34,322 bases of DNA, from IMG/VR virus record IMGVR_UViG_2675903330_000002, one strand, 5' to 3'. Below are positions 3,895-26,025 of the stretch, piece by piece. Origin of the DNA: a virus. Lineage: Duplodnaviria; Heunggongvirae; Uroviricota; Caudoviricetes. A program made the position numbers and the translations under genes. The notes under the pieces are model-generated. The model was given only the letters and a program-made list of their open reading frames with translations, had not been told where the DNA came from and searched no databases. Position 1 is the first letter of the stretch. Every line of letters begins with the position of its first letter.

Positions 3895-4166
3895 GTATTC
3901 GTATTGAAATTGGCGAACGTTATGTCGTTACCAGTGACAGCTTTCAGTTTATTCTCCACGAGAAAAAGAGAGCGGAAAGCGGTAAAAACGCCGGTCAGGA
4001 ATGGCTGTCGGTGGTTGGTTATTACCCGAAATTAAGCCAGCTCGTTTCCGGCCTGATGCATCACGATATTCTGACCGGAAGCGCAAAGTCTTTTGCTGAT
4101 TTAAACGTGCAGGTTGAGCAACTCAGCAAGCGTTGTTCAGAGGCTTTTGGCTCATATGGCCGTTAA
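3891..4166 (+). CDS. P2 orf83-like hypothetical protein (91 aa)
   Basis: ORF with ATG at 3891 overlapping the upstream stop. Its 3' end overlaps the start of A. Confidence 0.55.
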   Translation: MSIRIEIGERYVVTSDSFQFILHEKKRAESGKNAGQEWLSVVGYYPKLSQLVSGLMHHDILTGSAKSFADLNVQVEQLSKRCSEAFGSYGR

Positions 4167-6432
4167 AGCCTCCGGGCGTTTTGTCCCTCCGTCAGCATTT
4201 GCCGCAGGCACCGGTAAGGCGTTTACCGGTGCTTATGCATGGAACGCGCCACGCGAGGCTGTCGGGCGCGAAAGACCCCTTACACGTGACGAGATGCGTC
4301 AGGTGCAAGGTGTTTTATCCACGATTAACCGCCTGCCTTACTTTTTGCGCTCGCTGTTTACTTCACGCTATGACTACATCCGGCGCAATAAAAGCCCGGT
4401 GCACGGGTTTTATTTTCTCACATCCACTTTTCAGCGTCGTTTATGGCCGCGCATTGAGCGTGTGAATCAGCGCCATGAAATGAACACCGACGCGTCGTTG
4501 CTGTTTCTGGCAGAGCGTGACCATTATGCGCGTCTGCCGGGGATGAATGACAAGGAGCTGAAAAAGTTTGCCGCCCGTATCTCATCGCAGCTTTTCATGA
4601 TGTATGAGGAACTCTGCGATGCCTGGGTGGATGCGCATGGCGAAAAAGAATCGCTGTTTACGGATGAGGCGCAGGCTCACCTCTATGGTCATGTTGCTGG
4701 TGCTGCACGTGCTTTCAATATTTCCCCTCTCTACTGGAAAAAATACCGTAAAGGGCAGATGACCACGAGGCAGGCATATTCTGCCATTGCCCGTCTGTTT
4801 AACGATGAGTGGTGGACCCATCAGCTTAAAGGCCAGCGTATGCGCTGGCATGAGGCGTTACTGATTGCTGTCGGGGAGGTCAATAAAGACCGTTCTCCTT
4901 ATGCCAGTAAACATGCCATTCGTGATGTGCGTGCACGCCGCCAGGCAAATCTGGAATTTCTTAAATCGTGTGATCTCGAAAACAGGGAAACCGGCGAGCG
5001 CATCGACCTTATCAGTAAGGTGATGGGCAGTATTTCTAATCCTGAAATTCGCCGGATGGAGCTGATGAACACCATTGCCGGTATTGAGCGTTACGCCGCA
5101 GCAGAGGGTGATGTGGGGATGTTTATCACGCTGACCGCGCCGTCAAAGTATCACCCGACACGTCAGGTCGGAAAAGGCGAAAGTAAAACCGTCCAGCTTA
5201 ATCACGGCTGGAATGATGAGGCATTTAATCCAAAGGATGCGCAGCGATATCTCTGCCGTATCTGGAGCCTGATGCGCACGGCATTCAAGGATAATGATTT
5301 ACAGGTCTACGGTTTGCGTGTCGTCGAGCCACACCACGACGGAACGCCGCACTGGCATATGATGCTTTTTTGTAATCCACGCCAGCGTAACCAGATTATC
5401 GAAATCATGCGTCGCTACGCGCTCAAAGAGGATGGAGACGAAAGAGGAGCTGCGCGAAACCGTTTTCAGGCAATACACCTTAACCGGGGCGGTGCTGCGG
5501 GATATATCGCGAAATACATTTCAAAAAACATCGACGGCTATGCACTGGATGGTCAGCTCGATAACGATACCGGCAGGCCGCTGAAAGACACTGCCGCGGC
5601 TGTTACCGCATGGGCGTCAACGTGGCGCATTCCGCAATTTAAAACGGTTGGCCTGCCGACAATGGGGGCTTACCGTGAACTACGCAAATTGCCTCGCGGC
5701 GTCAGCATTGCTGATGAGTTTGACGAACGCGTCGAGGCTGCACGCGCTGCCGCAGACAGTGGCGATTTTGCGCTGTATATCAGCGCGCAGGGTGGGGCAA
5801 ATGTCCCGCGCGATTGTCAGACTGTCAGGGTCGCCCGTAGCCCGTCGGATGACGTTAACGAGTACGAGGAAGAGGTCGAGAGAGTGGTCGGCATTTACGC
5901 GCCGCATCTCGGCGCGCGTCATATTCATATCACCAGAACGACGGACTGGCGCATTGTGCCGAAAGTTCCGGTCGTTCAGCCTTTGACTTTAAAAAGCGGC
6001 ATCGCCGCGCCTCGGAGTCCTGTCAATAACTGTGGAAAGCTCACCGGTGGTGATACTTCGTTACCGGCTCCCACACCTTCTGAGCACGCCGCAGCAGTGC
6101 TTAATCTGGTAGATGACGGTGTTATCGAATGGAATGACCAGGAGGTCGTGAGGGCGCTCAGAGGTGCATTAAAACACGGTCTGAGAAGACCAAACCGTCA
6201 GCAAAGAAACGGAAGCCCGTTAAAACCGCATGAAATAGCGCCATCGGCCAGACTGACCCGGTCGGAACGAATGCAAATTACCCGTATCCGCGTTGACCTT
6301 GCTCAGAACGGTATCAGGCCACAGCGATGGGAGCTTGAGGCGCTGGCGCGTGGCGCGACCGTAAATTATGACGGGGAAAAATTCACGTATCCGGTCGCTG
6401 ATGAGTGGCCGGGATTCTCAACAAACATATAA
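4156..6432 (+). CDS. A: replication initiation endonuclease A (rolling-circle, HUH-type)
   Basis: About 758-aa ORF in the P2 gpA position, with an H-x-H metal-binding motif (HWHMMLF) and nearby Tyr residues. The track ORF starts at a TTG at 4114; the first ATG is at 4156. Confidence 0.85.
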   Translation: MAVKASGRFVPPSAFAAGTGKAFTGAYAWNAPREAVGRERPLTRDEMRQVQGVLSTINRLPYFLRSLFTSRYDYIRRNKSPVHGFYFLTSTFQRRLWPRIERVNQRHEMNTDASLLFLAERDHYARLPGMNDKELKKFAARISSQLFMMYEELCDAWVDAHGEKESLFTDEAQAHLYGHVAGAARAFNISPLYWKKYRKGQMTTRQAYSAIARLFNDEWWTHQLKGQRMRWHEALLIAVGEVNKDRSPYASKHAIRDVRARRQANLEFLKSCDLENRETGERIDLISKVMGSISNPEIRRMELMNTIAGIERYAAAEGDVGMFITLTAPSKYHPTRQVGKGESKTVQLNHGWNDEAFNPKDAQRYLCRIWSLMRTAFKDNDLQVYGLRVVEPHHDGTPHWHMMLFCNPRQRNQIIEIMRRYALKEDGDERGAARNRFQAIHLNRGGAAGYIAKYISKNIDGYALDGQLDNDTGRPLKDTAAAVTAWASTWRIPQFKTVGLPTMGAYRELRKLPRGVSIADEFDERVEAARAAADSGDFALYISAQGGANVPRDCQTVRVARSPSDDVNEYEEEVERVVGIYAPHLGARHIHITRTTDWRIVPKVPVVQPLTLKSGIAAPRSPVNNCGKLTGGDTSLPAPTPSEHAAAVLNLVDDGVIEWNDQEVVRALRGALKHGLRRPNRQQRNGSPLKPHEIAPSARLTRSERMQITRIRVDLAQNGIRPQRWELEALARGATVNYDGEKFTYPVADEWPGFSTNI

Positions 6433-6535
6433 AAATGATTGAAATGGTTGATTTTGCTTCCACTTGATGGTTGGTATCAGCAACTGATGGATCATGCGGA
6501 ACTGCGTGGCGATCTTGCTTTGGAAGCATGTCATT

Positions 6536-6754
6536 ATGACTAATGCATACATTACTAGCTATGCGTCCGGTTCCGCCATTGTACTCGTGCAAGAGTCTGC
6601 GGCTGATGGCTATTGTTTACAAATTATGGTCAAAGAGAATCTGACCCTCTACGAGTTGGTCGGAGGGACTGAGATCGTCAGTGATAACTGCAGCCGTATG
6701 GGAGAAATCAATAATCCCAACCGTCCATATTTCTACCTTCACGCGTGCCCATAA
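6536..6754 (+). CDS. hypothetical small protein (orphan ORF between A and the RT gene)
   Basis: ORF only, with no clear Shine-Dalgarno sequence. It occupies the region where P2 has orf91. May be non-coding. Confidence 0.2.
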   Translation: MTNAYITSYASGSAIVLVQESAADGYCLQIMVKENLTLYELVGGTEIVSDNCSRMGEINNPNRPYFYLHACP

Positions 6755-6780
6755 TCTGTCACCACGTTGACCATAGAAAA

Positions 6781-6825
6781 CCCCGTCGACGCTGAAACTC
6801 GCTTTCAGTGCTGGCGGGGGTGAAC
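6781..6825 (-). terminator. possible rho-independent terminator for the minus-strand RT gene
   Basis: CCCCG (6781-6785) pairs with CGGGG (6815-6819), with an inner CTGAAA/TTTCAG stem. On the minus strand the hairpin is followed by TTTTCT. Confidence 0.3.
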
Positions 6826-6919
6826 AACGAGCTTGCGAGGCGTTAGGGATGTCGAAATTTCATATGACTGTTCGCTTTAATGCTTAACGAAGTCATGTTG
6901 AGTTAATAACATTGTTTCG

Positions 6920-8464
6920 TTAAGCGCTGTGTTCCTTGTCGAATAAGTTCACTTCTTCTGGTGTAATATCATTATCCATTTCTTCGAATGCATCTAAATC
7001 CACAATTTTTGTTTTTTTCAAAATTGATAGTATTTTCTGTTTGTTTTTACTTTTGGCTGAGCCCGGAATCCACTCTACATCCCACAGGCCATCAATGGTA
7101 AATGTTTTTTTTCCCTTGAGTTCATCATTTATGCGTTGACATAGGGCTGTTTTGTAATCGCCTTCCCATTGTGTGTGTATCTTCCCTTGAACTCGTTGAA
7201 ACCAAATATCTAACATTTCAGTATTTGGTTGTTTACCTAGTTTACAATGAAGTTGTTGTAACTTGCCAAATTTGAGTTCATCGTCGTCATAAAGGAAGGT
7301 CAAGAGTTTTGCGAAAATAGCCATTCCCACTGGGTAGGTGGTTGGGTTTTTAGCCATGATGCTTGAAATAATTCCAAGCATTGCATCTAGTTGATGCCCA
7401 CTATTTGTGATCTTTTTCTTCCTAAATAATTTTCGCAAGAAATCATTTAAATATCTAACTGTAATTTTGGAGTTTTGATGTTTTAAAGAAAATAAATATA
7501 TTGCATACAACATTTTCTGTAGGGAGTTGAACGACCTTTCTATAATATATTCTTTTTTTGCTGATTTAAGGGAGTGAAGAATGATGTCGTCATGTAGTTC
7601 TGTTTTTCTTGAGTTTAAATCAAGCCCAAACTCACCTAAGACCTCAACCAAACACTTTGAGATTTTGTCCAAATCATCTTTACTGCTTGAAAATATTCGA
7701 TAATCATCTCTGTAGCGAACTACTTTGTAATCCGTTATTTTTTGCTCTTCAGTTTTTTTTCTTAGCTGTAAATCAATTTCGCCTAAAATTAATTCGGCAA
7801 ATGTATCCATCAACGTACTACCCAATGGTATTCCGTTTGTCTGATTACTCATCATCATCTGGATATGAGTGTCAATCAATCGTCCTGGGTTATTGTTATT
7901 TTCTTTCTTTTTGGCCTCTTCTTTTGAGATGAATACCCATTCAAAGCTATGAGTGTAAATAGAAGGGTAGAAGTTTGAAATATCTGTGCTGAACATGAAC
8001 TCATACTCAAGAGCCAATGAAAGACTTTTTTGTTCAAAATCTTCCCACCAGTTTAAAACAGATGCAGCTACGTTTGAGGTGTTCTTTTTGCTCACTGGGG
8101 TACTTGAGCATAAAAAAAGATCATTAGACTCAAACTCTCTAAATTTATTCTTTATAGCCTTCCAGTTGGAAGGGGATGTAATAAGTTTACAAAAATACAC
8201 GTAGTACAGAGGATTAATTAGTGTTATTCGTCGCCAGCTATATAAGCCATCTTTGCTGACTAAAACCTCGTAATTTATATTCTTCCCCATCAATGACTTG
8301 GAGTCAGGTTGGAAGTTGATTTTACCTTCATCTATCGCGGAGTTGATTTCTTCAAGCAAGGAAGAAAAATCGACATAACTGGGTAGCTCCAGAGTAGTGT
8401 ATGAATCATGCTGCAGAAAATACTTAAGCGCTCTACCAGTAGTTAATTCATAAATCTTTTTCAT
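6920..8464 (-). CDS. Abi-type reverse transcriptase (AbiA/AbiK/Abi-P2-like), 515 aa, in the P2 tin/old slot
   Basis: RT palm motifs readable in the translation: RRITLINP (motif 1), FSTDISNFYPSIY (motif A), NGIPLGSTLMDTFAEL (motif B), VRYRDDYRIF (YxDD, motif C), GLDLNSRKTEL (motif D/E). An extra C-terminal domain of about 175 aa follows. Start taken at MKKIYEL (8464); the track's longer form starts at 8590. The gene is AT-rich relative to the phage backbone. Confidence 0.75.
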   Translation of the reverse strand: MKKIYELTTGRALKYFLQHDSYTTLELPSYVDFSSLLEEINSAIDEGKINFQPDSKSLMGKNINYEVLVSKDGLYSWRRITLINPLYYVYFCKLITSPSNWKAIKNKFREFESNDLFLCSSTPVSKKNTSNVAASVLNWWEDFEQKSLSLALEYEFMFSTDISNFYPSIYTHSFEWVFISKEEAKKKENNNNPGRLIDTHIQMMMSNQTNGIPLGSTLMDTFAELILGEIDLQLRKKTEEQKITDYKVVRYRDDYRIFSSSKDDLDKISKCLVEVLGEFGLDLNSRKTELHDDIILHSLKSAKKEYIIERSFNSLQKMLYAIYLFSLKHQNSKITVRYLNDFLRKLFRKKKITNSGHQLDAMLGIISSIMAKNPTTYPVGMAIFAKLLTFLYDDDELKFGKLQQLHCKLGKQPNTEMLDIWFQRVQGKIHTQWEGDYKTALCQRINDELKGKKTFTIDGLWDVEWIPGSAKSKNKQKILSILKKTKIVDLDAFEEMDNDITPEEVNLFDKEHSA

Positions 8465-8670
8465 AATTAGTGATTTCTTCTTAAGTTGCGCACAAATAAC
8501 TACCTGTTTTCTATCATGATAACGATGCGAATGCGAGCAATTCAGGAAGTGCATTACTCTGCATCGAAGCGCACGCAAGTCAGAGAACAATAACTGCCTG
8601 GCGACATCAGGACTGGCGCGCTAGTTGAGTGGTCATGCAACTGCATTAAAACCGCCCCATGAAGCGGGCG

Positions 8671-8689
8671 GGCGAGGCGGGGGAAGCAC
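8671..8689. other. cos site (19-nt cohesive-end sequence GGCGAGGCGGGGGAAGCAC)
   Basis: Matches the P2/186 cohesive-end sequence as I recall it, with at most one difference. Lies between the A-side genes and Q as in P2, within a GC-rich dyad region. Confidence 0.7.
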
Positions 8690-8859
8690 TGCGCGCTAAA
8701 CGATGTCGCTGGCTTGCAGTTACCCGGTTGAAATTCTTATTTTTTTGTTGCATTATTCTTAGCGCACCAGCGATTCGCTTGGTATGCGGCAGTCAACAAC
8801 ATTAAATTGTCAGTTTTTGCTTTTACAAAAAAGCGTCCACTATGGACCTATCAGCGAGG

Positions 8860-9000
8860 CCCCACCGTCGTCAACTACGATGGTGCCGTAGCCGACGACA
8901 TTACGTACGGTCGAAAGATAGCAGAGGCTGTTGCTGACAATTGTTGATGTAAGCATCTCTGCTGTTCCACCCTTGAGTATGGGAAGACCGTACGTAACTT
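8860..9000 (+). ncRNA. candidate structured non-coding RNA upstream of the retron-type RT (possible msr/msd-like element)
   Basis: Perfect 12-bp inverted repeat TTACGTACGGTC (8901-8912) and GACCGTACGTAA (8986-8997), the latter 17 nt before the RT start codon. A compound hairpin GTCGTC-A-CTACG-loop-CGTAG-CC-GACGAC lies at 8867-8899, and an inner AGCAGAG/CTCTGCT stem at 8920-8963. Boundaries and strand are not established. Confidence 0.3.
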
Positions 9001-9014
9001 TGAATTTGAATGGT

Positions 9015-10205
9015 ATGTTTATGGATAAATTTAAACCATACAGCAAATCCAATGCTCCTATCACAACACTTGAAAAGTTGTCAAAGGCTTTATCGATTTC
9101 TGTTGAAGAGCTTAAAGCTATTGCAGAATTACCATTAGATGAGAAATATACTCTAAAAGAAATTCCCAAAATTGACGGAAGCAAACGGATTGTCTACTCC
9201 CTGCATCCTAAAATGAGATTATTACAGAGTAGAATTAATAAACGTATCTTTAAGGAATTGGTTGTTTTTCCTTCATTTTTGTTTGGTTCAGTTCCCAGTA
9301 AAAATGATGTTTTAAATTCTAATGTCAAACGTGACTATGTTTCATGTGCAAAGGCTCATTGTGGAGCAAAAACAGTTCTCAAGGTGGATATAAGTAATTT
9401 TTTCGATAATATCCATAGAGATCTGGTTAGGAGCGTGTTTGAGGAGATATTGCATATTAAGGATGAGGCTCTTGAATACTTGGTGGATATATGTACTAAG
9501 GATGATTTTGTCGTACAGGGGGCCTTAACATCAAGCTATATAGCAACTTTGTGTTTATTCGCTGTTGAAGGGGATGTGGTAAGACGTGCGCAGAGGAAAG
9601 GACTTGTTTATACGCGTTTGGTAGATGATATTACCGTGTCATCTAAAATAAGTAATTATGATTTTTCTCAAATGCAAAGCCATATAGAGAGGATGCTTTC
9701 TGAGCATGACTTGCCGATAAATAAGCGCAAAACTAAAATATTTCACTGTTCATCTGAACCTATAAAAGTACATGGTTTAAGAGTTGACTATGACTCACCT
9801 CGACTACCATCCGATGAAGTCAAAAGAATCAGGGCATCTATACATAATTTGAAATTACTGGCGGCAAAAAATAACACAAAAACAAGTGTTGCATACAGAA
9901 AAGAATTCAATAGATGTATGGGGAGAGTGAATAAGCTTGGCCGTGTTGCGCATGAAAAATATGAATCATTCAAGAAACAGTTGCAGGCAATAAAACCGAT
10001 GCCATCTAAAAGAGATGTTGCTGTGATTGATGCAGCTATAAAAAGTTTAGAGTTGTCGTATTCGAAAGGTAATCAAAATAAACATTGGTATAAAAGAAAA
10101 TATGATTTGACGAGATATAAGATGATTATTCTTACTCGCTCTGAATCATTTAAAGAAAAACTGGAGTGTTTTAAATCTAGATTGGCATCTTTAAAACCAT
10201 TATGA
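9015..10205 (+). CDS. retron-type reverse transcriptase (about 396 aa)
   Basis: Motifs align in order with retron RTs such as Ec86 (from memory): SKALSISVEEL (N-terminal), RIVYSLHP (motif 1), AKAHCGA (NAxxH-like), KVDISNFFDNI (motif A), VVQGALTSSYIATL (motif B), YTRLVDDITVS (motif C), INKRKTKI, KVHGLRV (VTG-like, Thr replaced by His), IRASIHNL. Start taken at the first ATG (9015); the track ORF begins at a TTG at 8931. Confidence 0.75.
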   Translation: MFMDKFKPYSKSNAPITTLEKLSKALSISVEELKAIAELPLDEKYTLKEIPKIDGSKRIVYSLHPKMRLLQSRINKRIFKELVVFPSFLFGSVPSKNDVLNSNVKRDYVSCAKAHCGAKTVLKVDISNFFDNIHRDLVRSVFEEILHIKDEALEYLVDICTKDDFVVQGALTSSYIATLCLFAVEGDVVRRAQRKGLVYTRLVDDITVSSKISNYDFSQMQSHIERMLSEHDLPINKRKTKIFHCSSEPIKVHGLRVDYDSPRLPSDEVKRIRASIHNLKLLAAKNNTKTSVAYRKEFNRCMGRVNKLGRVAHEKYESFKKQLQAIKPMPSKRDVAVIDAAIKSLELSYSKGNQNKHWYKRKYDLTRYKMIILTRSESFKEKLECFKSRLASLKPL

Positions 10206-10909
10206 ATGCAAATATTAGACTTCTCAAATATATTGTCGGTGTGTCGTCAGCTCTTTTTTTGATTTTTTCGCTAATTTCTCTTTTTGAAACTATTCAGAAT
10301 GAAAAGCTATATGAGCGTGATATATGCTTCGATAGCCAGTGCTTAAAATTTTTTGCGGAAAAAACATCTGGTATAGTAATGTATTTTCAGGCGTTTGGAT
10401 GGCTTATAACAACTTTTGTTACCGTTTTTGGTGTTATGATTGCTTTGATGACATATAACGCTGGAGTTAAAAATAATAATAATAGTAATTACACTAGTCA
10501 TCTGACGATGTTTAGAGAATTTGCAAGTGCTGAGTTAACTAAAAGAAGTAGCATCTATCCAGAGAAAGTTAATTTTTTTAGATGGTATAGGGTTATGTTC
10601 CCTGAAGCGCAAGGCGGTGATATATCTGTTTCGAGAGATTATCTAGAAATAATATCTAGAATCAAATGTGTTATTGAGGAAGCCAATGCACATATTACAG
10701 AGGAAAATAAAGACTATAAATATAAAACTCATCAGAGAAAAATGATGGCTGTTTTGGATGAAATCGGTATATCGATTAGTAATGGGCCCAAAAATATTTT
10801 TATTGAGGTTGAGAGTCAAATTTTGGATTATATCGATACTATTAATTTGTCATTTTGTCACTCCTCATCAGTGATAGAATTAAGTAGAGTAAAAAGGAAG
10901 TATATATAG
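10202..10909 (+). CDS. two-transmembrane-helix protein, putative retron effector (235 aa)
   Basis: ATGA overlap with the RT stop indicates translational coupling. Two hydrophobic helices (LLKYIVGVSSALFLIFSLISLF and GIVMYFQAFGWLITTFVTVFGVMIALMTY) precede a soluble domain of about 150 aa with no motif I recognise. Confidence 0.65.
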   Translation: MNANIRLLKYIVGVSSALFLIFSLISLFETIQNEKLYERDICFDSQCLKFFAEKTSGIVMYFQAFGWLITTFVTVFGVMIALMTYNAGVKNNNNSNYTSHLTMFREFASAELTKRSSIYPEKVNFFRWYRVMFPEAQGGDISVSRDYLEIISRIKCVIEEANAHITEENKDYKYKTHQRKMMAVLDEIGISISNGPKNIFIEVESQILDYIDTINLSFCHSSSVIELSRVKRKYI

Positions 10910-10911
10910 TT

Positions 10912-10940
10912 AAGTTGGCGGGATTGCATTCCGCCAACTT
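10912..10940. terminator. hairpin terminator between convergent effector gene and Q
   Basis: 10-bp perfect stem AAGTTGGCGG/CCGCCAACTT with a 9-nt loop, followed by TTATATATTTA. Lies in the 42-bp gap between two convergent stop codons. Confidence 0.5.
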
Positions 10941-10951
10941 TATATATTTAC

Positions 10952-11971
10952 TTATAAGTTATAATCAAGGAATTTTATGACTTCCATATCTAACCATTCA
11001 TTTATTGACTTTATTCTCTCCTGTAATGGAATGAGTTCATTGCGGACAAAGACCTTTGCCACTTTTTCAATATCTCCTAGTGACCCGACATTCTCCGGCT
11101 TACCGCCCATCAACTGAAAGGGGATGCGGTGTGCGTCCAGGAGATCTGCGGCGCTGACTTTTTTGATATTAAAAAAATCGTCCTTCGTCGCCACTTCACT
11201 GAGGGGGATAATTTTAATGCCGTCGGCTTTCCCCTGTGGGGCATAGAGAAACAGGTTTTTAAAGTTGTTGCGGCCTTTCGACTTAACCATGTTTTCGCGA
11301 AGCATTTCGATATCGTTGCGATCCTGCACGGCATCGGTGACATACATGATGTATCCGGCATGAGCGCCGTTTTCGTAATACTTGCGGCGGAACAGCGTGG
11401 CCGACTCATTCAGCCAGGCAGAGTTAAGGGCGCTGAGATATTCCGGCAGGCCGTACAGCTCCTGATTGATATCCGGCTCCAGCAGGTGAAACACGGAGCC
11501 GGGCGCGAAGGCTGTCGGCTCGTTGAAGGACGGCACCCACCAGTAAACATCCTCCTCCACGCCACGGCGGGTATATTTTGCCGGTGAGGTTTCCAGTCTG
11601 ATGACCTTACCGGTGGTGCTGTAACGCTTTTCCAGAAACGCATTACCGAACACCAGAAAATCCAGCACAAAGCGGCTGAAATCCTGCTGGGACAGCCACG
11701 GGTGCGGGATAAACGTTGAAGCCAGAATATTGCGTTTAACGTAAATCGGTGAGCTGTGATGCACGGCAGCACGCAGGCTTTTTGCCAGACCGGTAAAGCT
11801 GACCGGTGGCTCATACCATCTGCCGTTACTGATGCACTCGACGTAATCCAGAATATCACGGCGGTCGAGTACCGGCACCGGCTCACCAAAGGTGAATGCC
11901 TCCATTTTCGGGGCGCTGGCAGTCATTGTTTTCACCGCTGGCTGCGGTGTTTTCCCTTTTTTCTTACTCAT
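10952..11971 (-). CDS. Q: portal protein (gpQ-like), 339 aa
   Basis: Position and size as P2 Q. Start overlaps the stop of P (ATGA). Confidence 0.85.
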   Translation of the reverse strand: MSKKKGKTPQPAVKTMTASAPKMEAFTFGEPVPVLDRRDILDYVECISNGRWYEPPVSFTGLAKSLRAAVHHSSPIYVKRNILASTFIPHPWLSQQDFSRFVLDFLVFGNAFLEKRYSTTGKVIRLETSPAKYTRRGVEEDVYWWVPSFNEPTAFAPGSVFHLLEPDINQELYGLPEYLSALNSAWLNESATLFRRKYYENGAHAGYIMYVTDAVQDRNDIEMLRENMVKSKGRNNFKNLFLYAPQGKADGIKIIPLSEVATKDDFFNIKKVSAADLLDAHRIPFQLMGGKPENVGSLGDIEKVAKVFVRNELIPLQERIKSINEWLDMEVIKFLDYNL

Positions 11972-13743
11972 CAGTAAAACTCCAGAATGGTGGATGTCAG
12001 CGGGGTGCTGATACCGGCGGTGAGTGGCTCATTTAACAGGGCGTGCATGGTCGCCCAGGCGAGATCGGCGTGGCTGGCTTCCTCGCTGCGGCTGGCCTCA
12101 TAGGTGGCGCTGCGTCCGCTGCTGGTCATGGTCTTGCGGATAGCCATAAACGAGCTGGTGATGTCGGTGGCGCTGACGTCATATTCCAGACAGCCACGGC
12201 GGATAACGTCTTTTGCCTTGAGCACCATTGCGGTTTTCATTTCCGGCGTGTAGCGGATATCGCGCGCGGCGGGATAGAACGAGCGCACGAGCTGGAACAC
12301 GCCGACACCGAGGCCGGTGGCATCAATCCCGATGTATTCAACGTTATATTTTTCGGTGAGTTTGCGGATGGATTCCGCCTGGGTGGCAAAGTCCATGCCT
12401 TTCCACTGGTGACGCTCAAGTATTCTGAATTTGCCACCGGCCACCACCGGCGGTGCCAGTACCACGCATCCGGCGCTGTCGCCACGGTGTGACGGGTCGT
12501 AACCAATCCATACCGGGCGGGAGCCGAACGGATTTGCGGCAAACGGCGCATAGTCTTCCCATTCTTCCAGCGTGTCGACCATGCAACGTTGCAGCTCCTC
12601 GAACGGGAACACCGACGCCTTGTCGTCAACAAATTCACACATGAACAGGTTTTTAAAATCGTCGGCGCTGTTTTCACGTTTGAGCTGCTCAATGTCGAAC
12701 AGCGTGCAGCCGCCTTTCAGGGCGTCCTCAATGGTGACAATCTGCCGCCACTGGCCGTCCGCACAGAGAAGACCTCCGGCAAGGGCGTTATGACTGACGT
12801 CGATTTCCACGCGTTCGGCGGCGCTGGCGCGTCCCCGGTTGAACAGTTCACCCGACCAGAACGGGTAGGCGTCGTGCGCCAGCGTGGACGGGGTGGAGAA
12901 ATAGGTCGAGCGCAGGTGACTCTGTGAGGCCATACCTGATGCCACCTTACGCAGTACCTGAAAATTCGGGATCCAGAAAATCTCGTCGACGTACAGGTCG
13001 CCGTTATGGCTCTGTGCGGTGTTGGAGTTGGTGCCGAGAAAAATCAGTTTTGCGCCGTTATTGCCCAGGACAATCGGGTCACCGGTCAGGTCAACGTCAA
13101 CCAGCCGGGCAAAGGCGATGATGTATTCGCGGAACACATACGCCTGCGTTTTACTGGCCGACAGAAAAATCTGGTTATGACCGGTTTTCAGGGCGCGCAG
13201 CAGCGCCTCGCGGGAAAAATAAAACGTCGCGCCAATCTGGCGGGATTTCAGGATATCGCGGATGCGGTGCTCAAGCCCGGCGCGATACCAGTGCAACTGA
13301 TATTCGAAAGACTGCTCAAAGAAAATCTGCTCCAGCTTTTCGATGGCCTCGTCACTGAAAAAATTCTTTTTCGGTTTGCGACGCCCGCCTTTGTTGCGGT
13401 TAGCGACGTTCGGATTAAGGTCTGCCTCGTTGCCGGTCTGACTGTAGCGGTTGACCCGTGCCAGTCGTTCAATCTGACGTCCCAGCAGGTCAATTTCCTT
13501 GAAGTCACCGCCGGTTTTCTGCGGTTTGATGATGAGCTGGGTCAGCCGCGCTTCCAGACTCATTTCGACACGGCTGATGGGGGCAACGCTGTCCCAGCCG
13601 TCGCGCTGTTTCCAGCTCTGCACCGTCGGGCGTTTCATCTGCAACATGGCGGCAATCTGCGGCACGGAAAACCCCTGCCAGTACAGCAGCGCCGCCTGAC
13701 GACGCGGGTCGTGTAAAAGAGTGGTGTCTGTGGTGATGGTCAT
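11971..13743 (-). CDS. P: terminase large (ATPase) subunit (gpP-like), about 590 aa
   Basis: Large ORF divergent from O. Start taken at the internal ATG (13743) preceded by GAGGT, which gives the P2-like size; the track ORF extends to 13773. Confidence 0.85.
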   Translation of the reverse strand: MTITTDTTLLHDPRRQAALLYWQGFSVPQIAAMLQMKRPTVQSWKQRDGWDSVAPISRVEMSLEARLTQLIIKPQKTGGDFKEIDLLGRQIERLARVNRYSQTGNEADLNPNVANRNKGGRRKPKKNFFSDEAIEKLEQIFFEQSFEYQLHWYRAGLEHRIRDILKSRQIGATFYFSREALLRALKTGHNQIFLSASKTQAYVFREYIIAFARLVDVDLTGDPIVLGNNGAKLIFLGTNSNTAQSHNGDLYVDEIFWIPNFQVLRKVASGMASQSHLRSTYFSTPSTLAHDAYPFWSGELFNRGRASAAERVEIDVSHNALAGGLLCADGQWRQIVTIEDALKGGCTLFDIEQLKRENSADDFKNLFMCEFVDDKASVFPFEELQRCMVDTLEEWEDYAPFAANPFGSRPVWIGYDPSHRGDSAGCVVLAPPVVAGGKFRILERHQWKGMDFATQAESIRKLTEKYNVEYIGIDATGLGVGVFQLVRSFYPAARDIRYTPEMKTAMVLKAKDVIRRGCLEYDVSATDITSSFMAIRKTMTSSGRSATYEASRSEEASHADLAWATMHALLNEPLTAGISTPLTSTILEFY

Positions 13744-22680: not shown

Positions 22681-23894
22681 CAGTGAAATACTACGCCATT
22701 CTGACTAATCAGGGCGCGGCACGGCTGGCTAACGCGACGATGCTCGGCAGTAAGCTGAATCTGACGCAAATGGCCGTTGGTGATGCAAATGGTGTCTTGC
22801 CGACACCAGACCCGGCACAGACAAAACTGATTAACCAGAAACGCATCGCGCCGCTGAATCTTCTGAGTGTTGACCCGAACAACCAGAGCCAGATTATTGC
22901 GGAGCAAATCATCCCTGAGAACGAGGGCGGATTCTGGATCCGTGAGATTGGGCTTTATGATGATGAAGGCGTACTCATTGCGGTGGCGAACTGCCCGGAA
23001 ACGTACAAACCGCAGTTACAGGAAGGCAGTGGTCGTACCCAGACTATCCGCATGATTCTGGTTGTCACGAATACCGAAGCTATCACGCTGAAAATCGATC
23101 CGTCGGTGGTACTGGCGACCCGTAAATACGTGGATGATGAAGTCCTGGAATTAAAGCTGTATGTGGATGACCAGATGAGAAACCACATTGCCGCACAGGA
23201 TCCTCATACCCAGTATGCGCAGAAACATAATCCGACATTTACCGGAGAACCAAAAGCGCCGACGCCTGCCGCAGGAAATAACACCACGCGGATTGCGACC
23301 ACTGAGTTTGTTCAGGCCGCTATTACCGCTCTGATTAACGGTGCGCCAGCCACGCTGGACACACTGAAAGAAATTGCCGCAGCCATTAACAATGACCCGA
23401 AATTCAGTACCACCATTAACAATGCGCTGTCAGGTAAGCAGCCACTGGATGAGACGCTGACTCATTTGAGTGGAAAGGATGTTGCCGGTCTTCTCGCATA
23501 CCTTGGTTTGGGAGAAGCGGCAACGAGGAACGTCGGAACGGATACCGGGCAAGTACCAGATATGAGTAGTTTTACAACGGGGCACTCTGGAGCAGCAGAC
23601 TGGCCGAATCCTAAATCTGGATGGAGTAAGGGGCCGGATGGGGTAATTACACAATGGGGTATTTTCGGTTTCCCCGTTGGACAGACAGGGACGAATGTTG
23701 TTTTCCCGCTACCTTTCCCCGCGCGGGTCGAATCAATTACACTGACAATGGCAGATATACAGGAGTCTCTGCTTTCTCCAGCAACCATGCCTGCTTATGG
23801 AGTTAACTCAACTGGTACTTCAAGAACGGGTTTTACAGCCCGTATGTCAGGCGCCGGTGGGTTTAATCTTTGCTATATAGCGAAAGGGAGATAA
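22677..23894 (+). CDS. H: tail fibre protein (H-like), constant N-terminal part plus invertible C-terminal cassette, 405 aa
   Basis: N-terminus MTVKYYAILTNQGAARLANA is typical of P2/Mu-type tail fibres. A crossover site lies inside the gene at 23491-23516, about codon 272. Confidence 0.85.
   Translation: MTVKYYAILTNQGAARLANATMLGSKLNLTQMAVGDANGVLPTPDPAQTKLINQKRIAPLNLLSVDPNNQSQIIAEQIIPENEGGFWIREIGLYDDEGVLIAVANCPETYKPQLQEGSGRTQTIRMILVVTNTEAITLKIDPSVVLATRKYVDDEVLELKLYVDDQMRNHIAAQDPHTQYAQKHNPTFTGEPKAPTPAAGNNTTRIATTEFVQAAITALINGAPATLDTLKEIAAAINNDPKFSTTINNALSGKQPLDETLTHLSGKDVAGLLAYLGLGEAATRNVGTDTGQVPDMSSFTTGHSGAADWPNPKSGWSKGPDGVITQWGIFGFPVGQTGTNVVFPLPFPARVESITLTMADIQESLLSPATMPAYGVNSTGTSRTGFTARMSGAGGFNLCYIAKGR
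23491..23516. repeat. left crossover site for DNA invertase (hix/gix-like, 26 bp)
   Basis: TTCTCGCATACC-TT-GGTTTGGGAGAA is in inverted orientation to the site at 25351-25376 and shares the half-site TTCTCCCAAACC. Confidence 0.75.
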
Positions 23895-23898
23895 CAGA

Positions 23899-24342
23899 AT
23901 GAATAAAGTTAAAAGTGTTTACAGCCCGTCCGAAAATGCAATCTACAACGCAGCGCTATATGAAAGTTATATCAAGGAGGGGACATGGCCGCAGGATGGT
24001 ATTGAAATCAGCGATGAGGATGCTGTCAGATTTAATGGGGGAAATAAGCCAACAGGAAAAATGCTGGGAATGGTTTCAGGGACCCTTGCATGGGTTGATG
24101 AGCCGCCGCTTTCACCAGAACAGAAAATATCAGATGCAGAAAACATGAAAGCCACATTTCGTGCAAAAGCTGACAGTGAAATATCCTGGCGTCAGGATGC
24201 TGTTGATGCTGGTATCGCAACTGATGAAGAAACTTCAACTCTCACCCAATGGAAGAAATACCGTGTGCTGCTGATGCGTGTTGATACGTCAACAGCACCC
24301 GATATTGAATGGCCTACGCCTCCGGCAGCTCAGGCCAGATGA
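23899..24342 (+). CDS. tail fibre assembly protein (G/U-like), ON orientation, 147 aa
   Basis: Follows the tail fibre gene. Its C-terminus (...VDTSTAPDIEWPTPP) resembles that of the convergent paralogue. Confidence 0.75.
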   Translation: MNKVKSVYSPSENAIYNAALYESYIKEGTWPQDGIEISDEDAVRFNGGNKPTGKMLGMVSGTLAWVDEPPLSPEQKISDAENMKATFRAKADSEISWRQDAVDAGIATDEETSTLTQWKKYRVLLMRVDTSTAPDIEWPTPPAAQAR

Positions 24343-24907
24343 CATCCGGCGCGGTGCTGGTATCTGTTACCGTCACCGCGTCAATGTAATCCAGCACGGC
24401 GTTAAGTCGGGTTGTTTCTGCCTGCGTCAGCTTCCGTCCGGCCTGTAATTTCAGTTGAATCAGACTGATGGAAGCCATTGCAGCATCAATCAGCGACTGG
24501 CGCTGTGCTTCTGCTGCGTCTACTGCGGCACTATGCTGTGCCTCAGTATCTGTCACCCATTTCTCACCATCCCATTTATCGTATGGCGTTAACGGTGAAA
24601 GCGTGACATAACCGTCTTTGATGGCACCGATATAATCCACTGTAACAGCTGCGCCATTTTCGATTGAGTAAACAGTCTCATTGCGGTGGTCTTCTTCATG
24701 GCTCCATCCCTTACCCGTAAATACTGCCACTTTCCCCGGAATGTATTCGCCCGGGTCAATACCAGTGGAACAGGCGGGCATACTTACGCCAGTATTAATA
24801 TATTCATCAGACCAGCCCGTATACTCAGATGTTTCAGCATCATAATAAAAACAACGCATATCGCCCGGCACTGTAGCCAGCCCATTTTCATCAAAAACAG
24901 GTTTCAT
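24314..24907 (-). CDS. alternative tail fibre assembly protein (U'-like), OFF orientation, 197 aa
   Basis: Convergent with and overlapping the previous gene at 24314-24342. C-terminal motif ...TDTSTAPDVIWPELP. Confidence 0.7.
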   Translation of the reverse strand: MKPVFDENGLATVPGDMRCFYYDAETSEYTGWSDEYINTGVSMPACSTGIDPGEYIPGKVAVFTGKGWSHEEDHRNETVYSIENGAAVTVDYIGAIKDGYVTLSPLTPYDKWDGEKWVTDTEAQHSAAVDAAEAQRQSLIDAAMASISLIQLKLQAGRKLTQAETTRLNAVLDYIDAVTVTDTSTAPDVIWPELPEA

Positions 24908-25404
24908 TATTTAGCCCTCACCAGAAAGTTAAATGCAATATTTCGCGGTCTGACAGCAACAAAATTCACACCATCACCCACAGAGTTACTGGTGAAATTA
25001 AATCGTGAAAATCCTGGCTGATTTCCGGCGATGCCATCATGAAAGTTAATTGCGTGTCCCGCACCTTCGCCTATATTCCCGGCAAACTGAGAAAAGTTTG
25101 TAGCTGCCTGCCAGCTTAATAATTCGCGACCACCGTCTGCACCTCGCCCGTCATCCCAGATACGAATGAAATCACCGCGGGCTTCAGGTAATACCAGCGA
25201 AGGAAATACTTTCGCCAGCACAGGATAATCAGTGGCAGAGAATTTCGCGCCGCTGAACTTCAAAAACACCATACTGGACCAGCTGTCGATTACAGTATTT
25301 GGCATTGCAGCGGACGGCCAGAAGAACGGAACGCCAATAGCTGGAGCACCTTCTCCCAAACCAACGTTTATGAAAATGCAGAGATAATGGCTAACTGGCA
25401 TCAT
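24907..25404 (-). CDS. alternative tail-fibre C-terminal cassette (H'v), promoterless in this orientation
   Basis: The ORF's 5' end runs through the right crossover site and encodes ...NVGLGEGAP, matching the LGLGE junction in H. It has no independent start context. A functional product is expected only after inversion. Confidence 0.6.
   Translation of the reverse strand: MMPVSHYLCIFINVGLGEGAPAIGVPFFWPSAAMPNTVIDSWSSMVFLKFSGAKFSATDYPVLAKVFPSLVLPEARGDFIRIWDDGRGADGGRELLSWQAATNFSQFAGNIGEGAGHAINFHDGIAGNQPGFSRFNFTSNSVGDGVNFVAVRPRNIAFNFLVRAK
25351..25376. repeat. right crossover site for DNA invertase (hix/gix-like, 26 bp)
   Basis: TTCTCCCAAACC-AA-CGTTTATGAAAA lies immediately upstream of the invertase gene and resembles Hin/Gin/Cin crossover sites. 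Confidence 0.75.
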
Positions 25405-25431
25405 CCCCGGTTTTTATTCAGGGGGTTGATC

Positions 25432-26025
25432 ATGCTTATTGGCTATGTACGCGTGTCAACAAATGACCAGAACACCGATTTGCAACGTAGTGCGCTGAAC
25501 TGCGCGGGATGTGAGCGGATTTTTGAGGATAAAATCAGCGGCACTAAGTCCGACAGACCGGGGCTGAAAAAACTGCTCAGGACACTATCGGCAGGAGACA
25601 CGCTGGTAGTCTGGAAGCTGGACAGGCTGGGGCGTAGTATGCGGCATCTGGTCATTCTGGTTGAGGAGCTGCGCGAACGCGGCGTTAATTTTCGCAGCCT
25701 GACAGATGCTATTGATACCAGCACGCCGATGGGGCGTTTTTTCTTTCATGTGATGGGTGCCCTGGCTGAAATGGAGCGAGAACTCATTGTCGAGCGGACA
25801 CGCGCCGGACTGGAAGCGGCCAGAGCCAAAGGGCGTATTGGTGGCAGACGTCCGAAGCTCACCGCGAGTGAGTGGGAACAGGCAGGACGGTTGCTGGCTG
25901 CGGGTGAATCACGTCAACGCGTGGCGCTGATTTTTGATATTGGCCTGTCCACGCTCTATAAAAAATTCCCCTCATCAGCGGCAAAGAATAAATTGTGTCA
26001 TCCCTTAGCCAACCGGGACAAATAG
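25432..26025 (+). CDS. serine recombinase, Gin/Hin/Cin/Pin-family DNA invertase (about 197 aa)
   Basis: N-terminus MLIGYVRVSTNDQNTDLQR contains the catalytic Ser of the resolvase/invertase fold. C-terminal HTH ...GESRQRVALIFDIGLSTLYKKFP. ATG at 25432 preceded by AGGGGG. Occupies the slot where P2 has Z/fun. Confidence 0.9.
   Translation: MLIGYVRVSTNDQNTDLQRSALNCAGCERIFEDKISGTKSDRPGLKKLLRTLSAGDTLVVWKLDRLGRSMRHLVILVEELRERGVNFRSLTDAIDTSTPMGRFFFHVMGALAEMERELIVERTRAGLEAARAKGRIGGRRPKLTASEWEQAGRLLAAGESRQRVALIFDIGLSTLYKKFPSSAAKNKLCHPLANRDK

Follow-up and report, generated by a model that had tools for sequence, protein, structure and literature searches.

Retron Ec48 in its P2-like prophage setting and a second conserved helix in its leader RNA

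Introduction

What is encoded by a reverse transcriptase (RT) gene that overlaps the gene of a two-transmembrane (two-TM) protein between the cos site and the portal gene of a tailed phage: a known anti-phage retron or a new one? The question is raised by IMG/VR record IMGVR_UViG_2675903330_000002, of which the whole stretch of 34,322 nucleotides analysed is referred to here as the window. An earlier note on this DNA had proposed an Ec48-type retron, RT plus two-TM effector, of a divergent or undescribed kind. The Ec48-type part of that interpretation was borne out by every test run; the divergent or undescribed part did not hold, and a noncoding RNA (ncRNA), the part by which a retron is defined, had been overlooked although it is present. 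The locus is almost certainly the reference retron Ec48 (Retron-Eco6; type IV, RT clade 3), a three-part abortive-infection cargo of a P2-like prophage, and no finding speaks against this identification.

Retron Ec48 is an already characterised anti-phage system, and the finding is real, not new. It is said to go back to Mao et al. in 1996-97, is among the best-known retrons and served to demonstrate that retron defence against phage works through a guard on RecBCD. As an identification this copy matters little, being the reference sequence in its usual prophage setting. Protein identities, family assignments, ncRNA structure (by covariation) and genomic setting come from the present analysis; that Ec48 makes msDNA, defends against phage, guards RecBCD and needs the TM helices is taken from the literature.

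Reverse transcriptase

9021-10205, + strand: retron Ec48 reverse transcriptase (PADLOC RT_IV, Pfam RVT_1, exact match to RT48_ECOLX)

The RT is 394 aa long from the ATG at 9021, 396 aa from 9015 and 408 aa from 8979. The earlier note had given 396 aa, and the open reading frame 8931..10205 (+) does read so from ATG 9015; the start itself did not stand, the conserved one being 9021, which is kept in 10 homologous loci and is also PGAP's choice. Swiss-Prot and Millman numbering begins at ATG 8979 (408 aa), and in this form the protein is letter for letter RT48_ECOLX, with the RecName 'Retron Ec48 reverse transcriptase'. The catalytic DD corresponds to residues 216/217 in the 408-aa numbering, those mutated by Millman et al.

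The motifs reported earlier (SKALSISVEEL, AKAHCGA, DISNFF, QGALTSS, YTRLVDD, KVHGLRV and IRASIHNL) are seen in the 396-aa translation in that order. PADLOC RT_IV matches at 585.7 bits (E 1.1e-176; profile positions 2-385 of 386), the next-best PADLOC RT models being RT_V (211 bits) and RT_VI (182 bits), and Pfam RVT_1 matches as well. The best 25 PADLOC matches are nearly all retron RT models, with no DRT model among them. A DRT or Abi class was rejected, as no model exceeded its threshold: among NCBIfam models, Drt3a scored 39.8 bits (cut-off 200), Drt2 33.8 (390) and AbiA 24.1 (250), and the group II intron models fell far below their cut-offs. As read from its sequence, the protein is a retron-clade RT with regions X and Y, and it is a type IV, clade 3 RT.

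CAKAH stands in region X and VHG in region Y, so that the H and the G are kept; these are the most conserved residues of NAxxH and VTG, respectively (Mestre et al., PMC7736814). The change from VTG to VHG and the C-terminal extension had been taken as marks of a variant. Both are family traits: VHG, LVDD, CAKAH (CAxxH) and the extension of about 110 aa do not vary among the 11 aligned RTs of type IV, which share 55-77% identity.

Two-TM effector

10202-10909, + strand: retron Ec48 effector, 235 aa (PADLOC 2TM_IV, NCBIfam NF038235, TM48_ECOLX, hydropathy, AlphaFold2 model)

The RT stop overlaps the effector start as ATGA at 10202-10205, as noted before. The two N-terminal TM helices claimed for the 235-aa protein are likewise seen, as hydrophobic segments at about residues 5-32 and 58-86, with helices at residues 2-33 and 56-90 of the AlphaFold2 model. 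Both fall within residues 3-85, the region deleted by Millman et al. The C-terminal domain is all-helical in the model and finds no match in the PDB.

The exact effector sequence is named 'Retron Ec48 transmembrane protein' (TM48_ECOLX). PADLOC 2TM_IV matches over its full length (282.9 bits), and NCBIfam NF038235 (retron_Ec48_2TM, an equivalog) matches at 226.7 bits against a cut-off of 65. For the homologues, PF28197 (Retron_Ec48_antiviral) is on record as a precomputed assignment. The profile-HMM check recommended for both proteins thus returned RT_IV and 2TM_IV at full length, with DRT/Abi models below cut-off. A two-TM membrane protein just downstream of, or overlapping, the type IV RT gene is described as cluster 826_1 by Mestre et al.; judged by the ATGA overlap, the profile matches and the TM48_ECOLX name, this arrangement is found here.

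Genomic setting

4114-6432, strand not given: gpA, flank of the hotspot
6920-8467, - strand: AbiP2 reverse transcriptase, on the other side of cos from the retron
8629-8697, no strand: cos region, sharing 95.7% identity with positions 41-110 in the linear genome of phage D8, which is P2-like and has no retron
8671-8689, no strand: cos cohesive-end sequence GGCGAGGCGGGGGAAGCAC, read inside 8629-8697
8698-11012, no strand: variable insert relative to phage D8 (blastn of D8 1-700 against the window; GC drop)
10952-11971, - strand: portal gene, downstream of the retron

The RT and two-TM genes lie between cos and the portal gene, as the earlier note had stated, with cos upstream and the portal gene downstream. 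The sequence at 8671-8689 matches what we take to be the 19-nt cos sequence of P2, and the cos region also matches near the ends of several, but not all, other linear P2-like phage records. The insert replaces D8 positions 111-347, holds the whole retron cassette and the 3' end of the portal gene, and has a GC content of 0.31-0.37 vs about 0.55 in the phage body.

The position on the Q side of cos had also been read as a sign of a variant; it belongs to a defence hotspot already described for P2, namely the gpA-cos-gpQ region in P2-like phages, whose cargo includes retrons (Rousset et al., PMC9122126). By its coordinates the cassette is cargo of this hotspot, a variable insert that borders cos in the gpA-gpQ interval. 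In other P2-like prophages, two homologues (L006 and L009) are found at the same place between gpA and the portal gene. Since AbiP2 and Ec48 flank cos, they would come to lie at opposite ends of the packaged genome after cos cleavage.

The msr-msd RNA and its transcript

8728-8756, + strand: predicted sigma-70-type promoter, TTGAAA-17 nt-CATTAT (consensus scan)
~8764-8956, + strand: retron ncRNA, msr-msd (RNAalifold on 11 loci, pair counts on 13 loci)
8766-8783, + strand: 5' hairpin of the ncRNA (RNAalifold, pair counts)
8784-8813, + strand: a1 arm of the priming stem, pairing with 8934-8956
8819-8834, 8835-8847 and 8858-8887, + strand: msr stem-loops 1-3 (RNAalifold, pair counts)
8886-8933, + strand: predicted msd template of 48 nt, between msr stem-loop 3 and a2
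8934-8956, + strand: a2 arm of the priming stem (RNAalifold, pair counts)
10912-10940, + strand: hairpin resembling an intrinsic terminator (13-bp stem), located between the stop codons of the effector and portal genes

An Rfam scan of 6000-12000 at E <= 1 returned no family, and the ncRNA was therefore defined by comparison of loci. Across 13 loci, 93.3% of cells in its structure are paired and 26 pairs carry compensatory changes, a level reached in none of 500 shuffles. The a1/a2 stem accounts for 18 pairs, 10 of them with compensatory changes and 96-100% paired in the 13 loci, and the three msr hairpins covary as well. Position 8813 is G in all 12 sequences covering it, which makes it a candidate branching guanosine, although the branch point is assigned by inference. 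Comparison of loci thus shows that an msr-msd ncRNA adjoins the RT gene and has an a1/a2 inverted repeat, msr stem-loops and a conserved G as candidate branch point. The leader is more conserved than the proteins.

The msDNA would be the complement of the template at 8886-8933. The predicted template length of 48 nt equals the reported length of msDNA-Ec48; Eco6 RT-DNA has been sequenced at about 48 nt and measured 3 nt shorter at the 3' end (Palka et al., PMC8989520). As DNA, the template folds no better than its shuffles (z -0.5). An Eco6 ncRNA sequence is given neither by Palka 2022 nor by the retron census, where a 'donor location 130;136' with no stated origin is the only entry, and a full-text literature search with strings of the leader sequence returned nothing. 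When viral and metagenome contigs were scanned with the 15-base pattern ACCCTTGANNATGGGNAG, most matches were due to chance; the 12 true ones are near-identical to loci already in the comparison and add no diversity.

The predicted promoter may serve a transcript spanning ncRNA, RT and effector. The same -35/-10 pair with its 17-nt spacing occurs in the closer leaders (L005-L009), which belong to the window-like Enterobacterales clade; it is not evident in L002, L003, L004, L010 and L011. The hairpin at 10912-10940 probably acts as the terminator.

A second conserved helix in the leader

8901-8912, + strand: 5' arm of the helix HB, TTACGTACGGTC, lying within the msd template and forming a perfect 12-nt inverted repeat with 8986-8997
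8970-8983, + strand: small, almost invariant hairpin preceding the 3' arm of HB
8986-8997, + strand: 3' arm of HB, GACCGTACGTAA, in the RT leader, 24 nt upstream of the RT ATG at 9021

HB, a 12-bp helix, is 99.4% paired in 13 loci, with compensatory changes in 4 pairs. The minimum-energy fold of the full leader contains it in all 11 sequences, in one of them as a tie with the a1/a2 fold. No description of HB was found in the literature searched, and the helix falls outside the canonical msr-msd model, which does not explain it. Because HB crosses the a1/a2 priming stem, the leader RNA should be either a pseudoknot or a two-state switch.

A tentative and rather unlikely proposal is that the type IV leader, with HB as pseudoknot or switch, couples the synthesis or amount of msDNA to what becomes of the RT-effector mRNA or to its translation. 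One arm of HB would be lost to reverse transcription and RNase H, and the msDNA, which carries the same 12-mer as the other arm, could displace that arm in new transcripts; such a coupling is therefore possible. If true, it would be akin to the msDNA-dependent riboregulation recently proposed in type VI, a sister group of retrons. HB offers a concrete handle on the sensing of RecBCD by Ec48 and on the control of the effector.

Two further candidates were set aside. Masking of the RT ribosome-binding site by HB found no support, as the unpaired probability at -14..+3 showed no consistent difference between the two conformers in 12 loci. HC, a weaker helix joining 8918-8926 to 8957-8965, reaches only 86% pairing and is disrupted in 4 sequences; it is not established.

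HB could also be read as the real a1/a2 priming stem, with G8913 as branching guanosine, msDNA templated from 8985 back to about 8938 and some other role for the RNA upstream. In Ec86-type retrons the a1/a2 repeat is followed at once by a G, and HB is likewise a perfect 12-bp repeat directly followed by G; its near-complete pairing with four compensatory pairs, its adjoining the RT start and its presence in the minimum-energy folds fit this reading too. However, G8913 is not invariant (C in L257), whereas G8813 is G wherever it is covered. The reading also leaves no stem-loop between branch G and template for recognition by the RT, and leaves unexplained both the covarying 18-pair helix 8784-8813/8934-8956 and the three covarying hairpins. 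The canonical model, by comparison, has exactly 48 nt between stem-loop 3 and a2. A priming role for HB is thus improbable, and the stem at 8784-8813/8934-8956 is retained as a1/a2.

Identity and state of the cassette

In 57 complete E. coli genomes the cassette recurs at 99.9-100% identity, and RefSeq labels the same DNA there 'retron Ec48 family effector membrane protein'. Phage pro147 shares 99.9% identity with the window over 6800-11000.

The cassette might nevertheless be silent or decayed in the prophage, a passenger with no current defence function. AT-rich prophage cargo is often silenced by H-NS, and H-NS silencing of immunity loci is reportedly the subject of a 2026 preprint; the present copy is known from sequence alone. 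Yet both open reading frames are undamaged and match exactly those of the reference, whose activity is known from experiment; the predicted promoter, ncRNA helices and terminator are intact as well, and the near-identity among the 57 complete genomes shows that the sequence has been kept. Silence or decay is accordingly given very little weight.

Virtually no credence is left for a divergent or undescribed retron variant: VHG, LVDD, the long basic C-terminal extension and the Q-side position do differ from the Ec86-type textbook motifs, and the closest solved RT structure (Ec86) matches over residues 15-277 only, at E 2.4e-16, but these motifs and the extension are constant in the type IV RTs aligned, the position is a known hotspot used by other type IV retrons too, and the reading is refuted by the exact-sequence look-ups of both proteins (RT48_ECOLX, TM48_ECOLX).

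Proposed mechanism

For retron Ec48, the promoter at about 8728-8756 would drive one transcript, whose 5' part (~8764-8956) would fold into the msr-msd RNA. The RT (9021-10205) would bind the msr stem-loops, prime from the 2'-OH of a guanosine (candidate G8813) where the a1/a2 stem ends, and copy about 48 nt, from 8933 back to about 8886, into msDNA-Ec48, with RNase H1 removing the template. In published experiments, defence needs both RT activity and the two-TM effector, and the trigger is inhibition of RecBCD by phage proteins such as lambda Gam or T7 gp5.9, or deletion of recB; the triggered cell halts growth or dies before the phage cycle is completed.

For the same exact protein pair, Millman et al. 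described abortive infection triggered by RecBCD inhibition: defence is abolished by RT D216A/D217A or by deletion of effector residues 3-85, Gam and gp5.9 trigger death, and recB mutants cannot be transformed with Ec48 (bioRxiv 10.1101/2020.06.21.156273). Expression of the Eco6 effector alone produced no observed toxicity (Palka et al., PMC8989520), and a simple scheme of a toxin held in check by msDNA is therefore not established for Ec48.

Comparison with known systems

Several systems share single features with Ec48. The two-TM effectors of CBASS likewise use a two-helix membrane anchor as suicide effector, a likeness drawn by Millman et al. (bioRxiv 10.1101/2020.06.21.156273) that is one of analogy; the C-terminal domain of the Ec48 effector matches nothing in the PDB. 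The Old protein (like Tin) is cargo of the same gpA-cos-gpQ hotspot in phage P2 (PMC9122126). Old too kills recB cells, and Gam and gp5.9 activate it (bioRxiv 10.64898/2026.07.10.737580). It differs in consisting of one ABC-ATPase/TOPRIM protein that is accompanied by neither RT, ncRNA nor membrane effector. AbiP2 is likewise an RT-based defence gene of P2-like phages, but is a single protein of the Abi/DRT class without msr-msd RNA or separate effector and stands outside the retron. In P2, Old lies on the gpA side of cos; AbiP2 of P2-EC58 was reportedly described by Odegrip et al. in 2006.

The rest of RT clade 3 consists of type V (Retron-Sen1/Se72) and type VI (Retron-Vpa2) retrons. Lambda Gam is a trigger of type V too, and type VI responds to phage recombination proteins; type VI msDNA is undetectable until triggered and derepresses translation of a toxin, whereas Ec48 msDNA is constitutive (bioRxiv 10.1101/2025.10.22.683967). 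The effectors differ too: a cold-shock-like DNA-binding protein in type V, an HTH protein with a small toxic peptide in type VI and a two-TM protein in Ec48.

The closest RT with a solved structure is that of Retron Ec86/Retron-Eco1 (7v9u and others, E 2.4e-16). Ec86 follows the same general msr-msd priming scheme but is of type II-A3, with a nucleoside deoxyribosyltransferase-like effector. Its RT has 320 aa compared with 394 aa for Ec48, lacks the C-terminal extension, and carries YADD and VTG in place of LVDD and VHG. Its msDNA is an 86-nt hairpin, compared with the 48 nt of Ec48, which are predicted to be nearly unstructured.

From Retron Ec48/Retron-Eco6 itself no difference was found, and only the annotated RT start varies among records (8979, 9015 or 9021). 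The RT, the effector, the operon layout with its ATGA overlap, the upstream msr-msd RNA and the 48-nt template are all shared, and the window presents the native context of the reference system, with AbiP2, cos and Ec48 in one P2 hotspot.

Identity of the Retron

Two overlapping open reading frames lie on the plus strand from 8931 to 10909, where the GC content is 0.31-0.37 vs approximately 0.55 in the phage body. An earlier note had read them as a retron-type reverse transcriptase (RT) coupled to a two-transmembrane (2TM) effector of the Ec48 type. All of the RT motifs it quoted occur, in the claimed order, in the 396-aa protein from ATG 9015, and the start of the 235-aa effector (10202-10909) overlaps the RT stop as ATGA. 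Hydrophobic segments at effector residues ~5-32 and ~58-86 agree with the helices of an AlphaFold2 model, in which an all-helical domain follows long helices at 2-33 and 56-90. Since the two frames, motif order, ATGA overlap, transmembrane segments and AT-richness all hold, the observation is confirmed. The RT start kept across type IV loci is ATG 9021 (394 aa; also the choice of PGAP), and longer forms extend into conserved RNA.

Profile-HMM searches of both proteins uphold the Ec48 type. In PADLOC the RT matches RT_IV over its full length (585.7 bits, E 1e-176), with the sister types V and VI as runner-up models, and the effector matches 2TM_IV, also over its full length (282.9 bits). The NCBIfam equivalog retron_Ec48_2TM scores 226.7 bits on the effector vs a cut-off of 65, and homologues bear the precomputed Pfam annotation PF28197 (Retron_Ec48_antiviral). 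Identity is settled by look-ups of exact sequences: the 235-aa protein is “Retron Ec48 transmembrane protein” (TM48_ECOLX) and the 408-aa form of the RT from ATG 8979 is “RecName: Retron Ec48 reverse transcriptase” (RT48_ECOLX; alternative name ECOR-58). Counted along the 408-aa form, YTRLVDD has its catalytic aspartates at 216/217, the same positions as in the D216A/D217A mutant of Millman et al., whose effector deletion 3-85 covers both predicted helices. Among 5426 complete E. coli genomes, 57 carry the 2361-base cassette at 99.9-100% identity, with the RefSeq label “retron Ec48 family effector membrane protein”, and phage pro147 has it at 99.9% identity. Judged by sequence, the locus is the reference Ec48 retron (Retron-Eco6, type IV) and no variant thereof.

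Three traits had been taken as signs of divergence, and none of them survives comparison with ten further type IV loci (effectors 38-68%, RTs 55-77% identical) and the literature. VHG in place of VTG is no such sign, as VHG (or IHG), LVDD and CAxxHC are invariant across all type IV RTs compared. The original paper on the Ec48 RT reportedly dealt with the LVDD box. The long basic C-terminal extension, approximately 110 residues, is likewise universal in the aligned type IV RTs. The most conserved residues of VTG and NAxxH are G and H, respectively (Mestre et al., PMC7736814), and the RT here retains both. The third trait, a position on the Q side of cos, falls within a published hotspot.

Some relatives depart from this layout. 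Effectors in one subgroup of the Ec48 family (proteins P0068-P0079) measure 345-353 aa and are extended at the N terminus by ~110 residues. A possibly decaying copy is the Cedecea locus (L256, 1429-3541), whose RT is divided between a 250-aa and a 77-aa frame and in which ~130 nt are inserted between the noncoding RNA and the start of the RT.

Prophage Setting and Hotspot

The window is a P2-like prophage with a host peptidase U32 gene at its right end. The gene order is integrase, gene A, AbiP2-type RT, cos, retron, portal and terminase, then head, lysis and tail genes.

Features around the retron
584-1597: integrase
4114-6432: replication gene A
6920-8467, minus strand: AbiP2-type RT (PADLOC AbiP2, 531.6 bits)
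10952-11971: portal gene, downstream of the retron

Sequence matching the cos region (8629-8697) is found at the genome ends of P2-like phages without the retron, near the ends of several, though not all, of the linear P2-like records other than D8. Homology with the retron-less phage D8 ends at 8697 and restarts at 11013; therefore 8698-11012 stands in place of 237 D8 bases. The gpA-cos-gpQ interval is a hotspot of anti-phage systems, retrons included (Rousset et al., PMC9122126), and two of the compared type IV retrons (L006, L009) occupy it in other P2-like prophages. More distant type IV retrons, with effectors 41-44% identical (L254, 1327-3208; L255, 1324-3214; L257, 1320-3217), adjoin an Ogr/Delta gene and an integrase next to focA, a setting that resembles the P4-like satellite hotspot more than a P2-like prophage.

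The final ~20 portal codons (10952-11012) lie within the variable insert and, as D8 homology restarts only at 11013, hotspot exchange seems to take in the 3' end of gpQ. Across cos from the retron, on the gpA side, the AbiP2-type RT runs divergently, and its DNA shares 99.7% identity with record AM157368, the RT of P2-EC58. Two unrelated RT-based defence genes flank cos and would therefore occupy opposite ends of the packaged genome. Farther downstream lies an invertible tail-fibre (host-range) segment (23491-26025).

Features of the invertible segment
22677-23894: tail-fibre gene
23491-23517 and 25350-25376: 27-nt inverted repeats, within or behind the tail-fibre gene
23899-24342 (plus) and 24314-24907 (minus): opposed tail-fibre-assembly genes
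24907-25404, minus strand: alternative open reading frame
25387-26025: serine invertase (Resolvase + HTH_7)

The arrangement is similar to the G segment of Mu and the C segment of P1.

The msr-msd RNA

Conservation in the 260 bases upstream of the RT exceeds that of the proteins. From the structure predicted by RNAalifold (11 loci) and explicit pair counts (13 loci), this stretch, overlooked in the earlier note, is a canonical retron RNA.

Predicted features of the transcript
8728-8756: promoter-like site TTGAAA-17-CATTAT
8766-8783: 5' hairpin (RNAalifold and pair counts)
8784-8813 with 8934-8956: a1/a2 priming stem (18 pairs, 10 compensatory, 96-100% paired)
8819-8834, 8835-8847 and 8858-8887: three msr hairpins (RNAalifold and pair counts)
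3' of the effector: 13-bp terminator hairpin

Across the full structure 93.3% of cells pair and 26 pairs have compensatory changes, a covariation reached in 0/500 shuffles. The candidate branching guanosine, G8813, is a G in each of the 12 sequences that extend over this position. The closer homologues (L005-L009) retain the promoter-like site, which is not evident in more distant leaders. The distance from the last msr hairpin to a2 is exactly 48 nt (8886-8933), a predicted template length that agrees with the 48-nt msDNA behind the name Ec48; Palka et al. (PMC8989520) found Ec48 msDNA to be 3 nt shorter at the 3' end. For this copy, we infer the branch point and msDNA ends. As DNA, the predicted 48-nt msDNA (8886-8933, minus strand) is almost unstructured (-4.9 kcal/mol, z -0.5 vs shuffles), unlike most msDNAs, which form long hairpins; as RNA, the template has a 6-bp stem relying on G-U pairs that the DNA copy lacks.

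Known Mechanism of Defence

The RT copies msd into msDNA, and defence against lambda, T2, T4, T5 and T7-type phages requires RT activity and the effector transmembrane helices (Millman et al., bioRxiv 10.1101/2020.06.21.156273). In the same study, Ec48 escape mutants fell in lambda gam and T7 5.9, expression of the RecBCD inhibitors Gam or the T7 5.9 product was lethal to retron-bearing cells, and Ec48 could not be put into recB mutants; therefore, Ec48 guards RecBCD, triggering abortive infection. Gam was later confirmed as a type IV trigger (bioRxiv 10.1101/2025.10.22.683967), and a 2026 study still describes the sensing of RecBCD status as undetermined (bioRxiv 10.64898/2026.07.10.737580). 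The effector by itself was not toxic in one study (Palka et al., PMC8989520). A PDB search returned no solved structure for the RT or the effector, and no fold relative of the effector model (pLDDT 78).

A Second Conserved Helix in the Leader

The earlier note was right about the kind of system and wrong about its novelty: retron Ec48 and its hotspot were both already known, and the sole possibly new item is a second helix in the leader (HB), of which no description was found in the papers searched. HB is a perfect 12-nt inverted repeat, TTACGTACGGTC (8901-8912) and GACCGTACGTAA (8986-8997), 99.4% paired in 13 loci. Four pairs have compensatory changes, found in the Buttiauxella/Proteus clade, a second E. 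coli variant, Cedecea and Serratia marcescens. The 5' arm of HB belongs to the msd template, and 24 nt separate its 3' arm from the RT start downstream. As the arms alternate (a1, HB 5' arm, a2, HB 3' arm), HB crosses the priming stem. When the entire leader is folded, the minimum-energy structure includes HB in 11/11 sequences, and is better than the best fold containing a1/a2 in ten (by 2.6-12.6 kcal/mol) and tied in one. A small predicted hairpin, CCC-TTGAGTAT-GGG (8970-8983), lies between a2 and the HB 3' arm and is almost invariant in sequence across 13/13 loci.

HB as the true a1/a2 stem was rejected because the next G is not invariant (C in L257), there would be no msr stem-loop, and the better-supported upstream helices would be unaccounted for. 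HB did not consistently mask the RT ribosome-binding site, as judged in 12 loci by the unpaired probability of positions -14 to +3 in the two conformers. The msDNA would bear the 12-mer of the HB 3' arm, so that msDNA or reverse transcription could free that arm. That possibility brings to mind, without amounting to proof, the msDNA-dependent riboregulator put forward for type VI retrons, a sister group (bioRxiv 10.1101/2025.10.22.683967).
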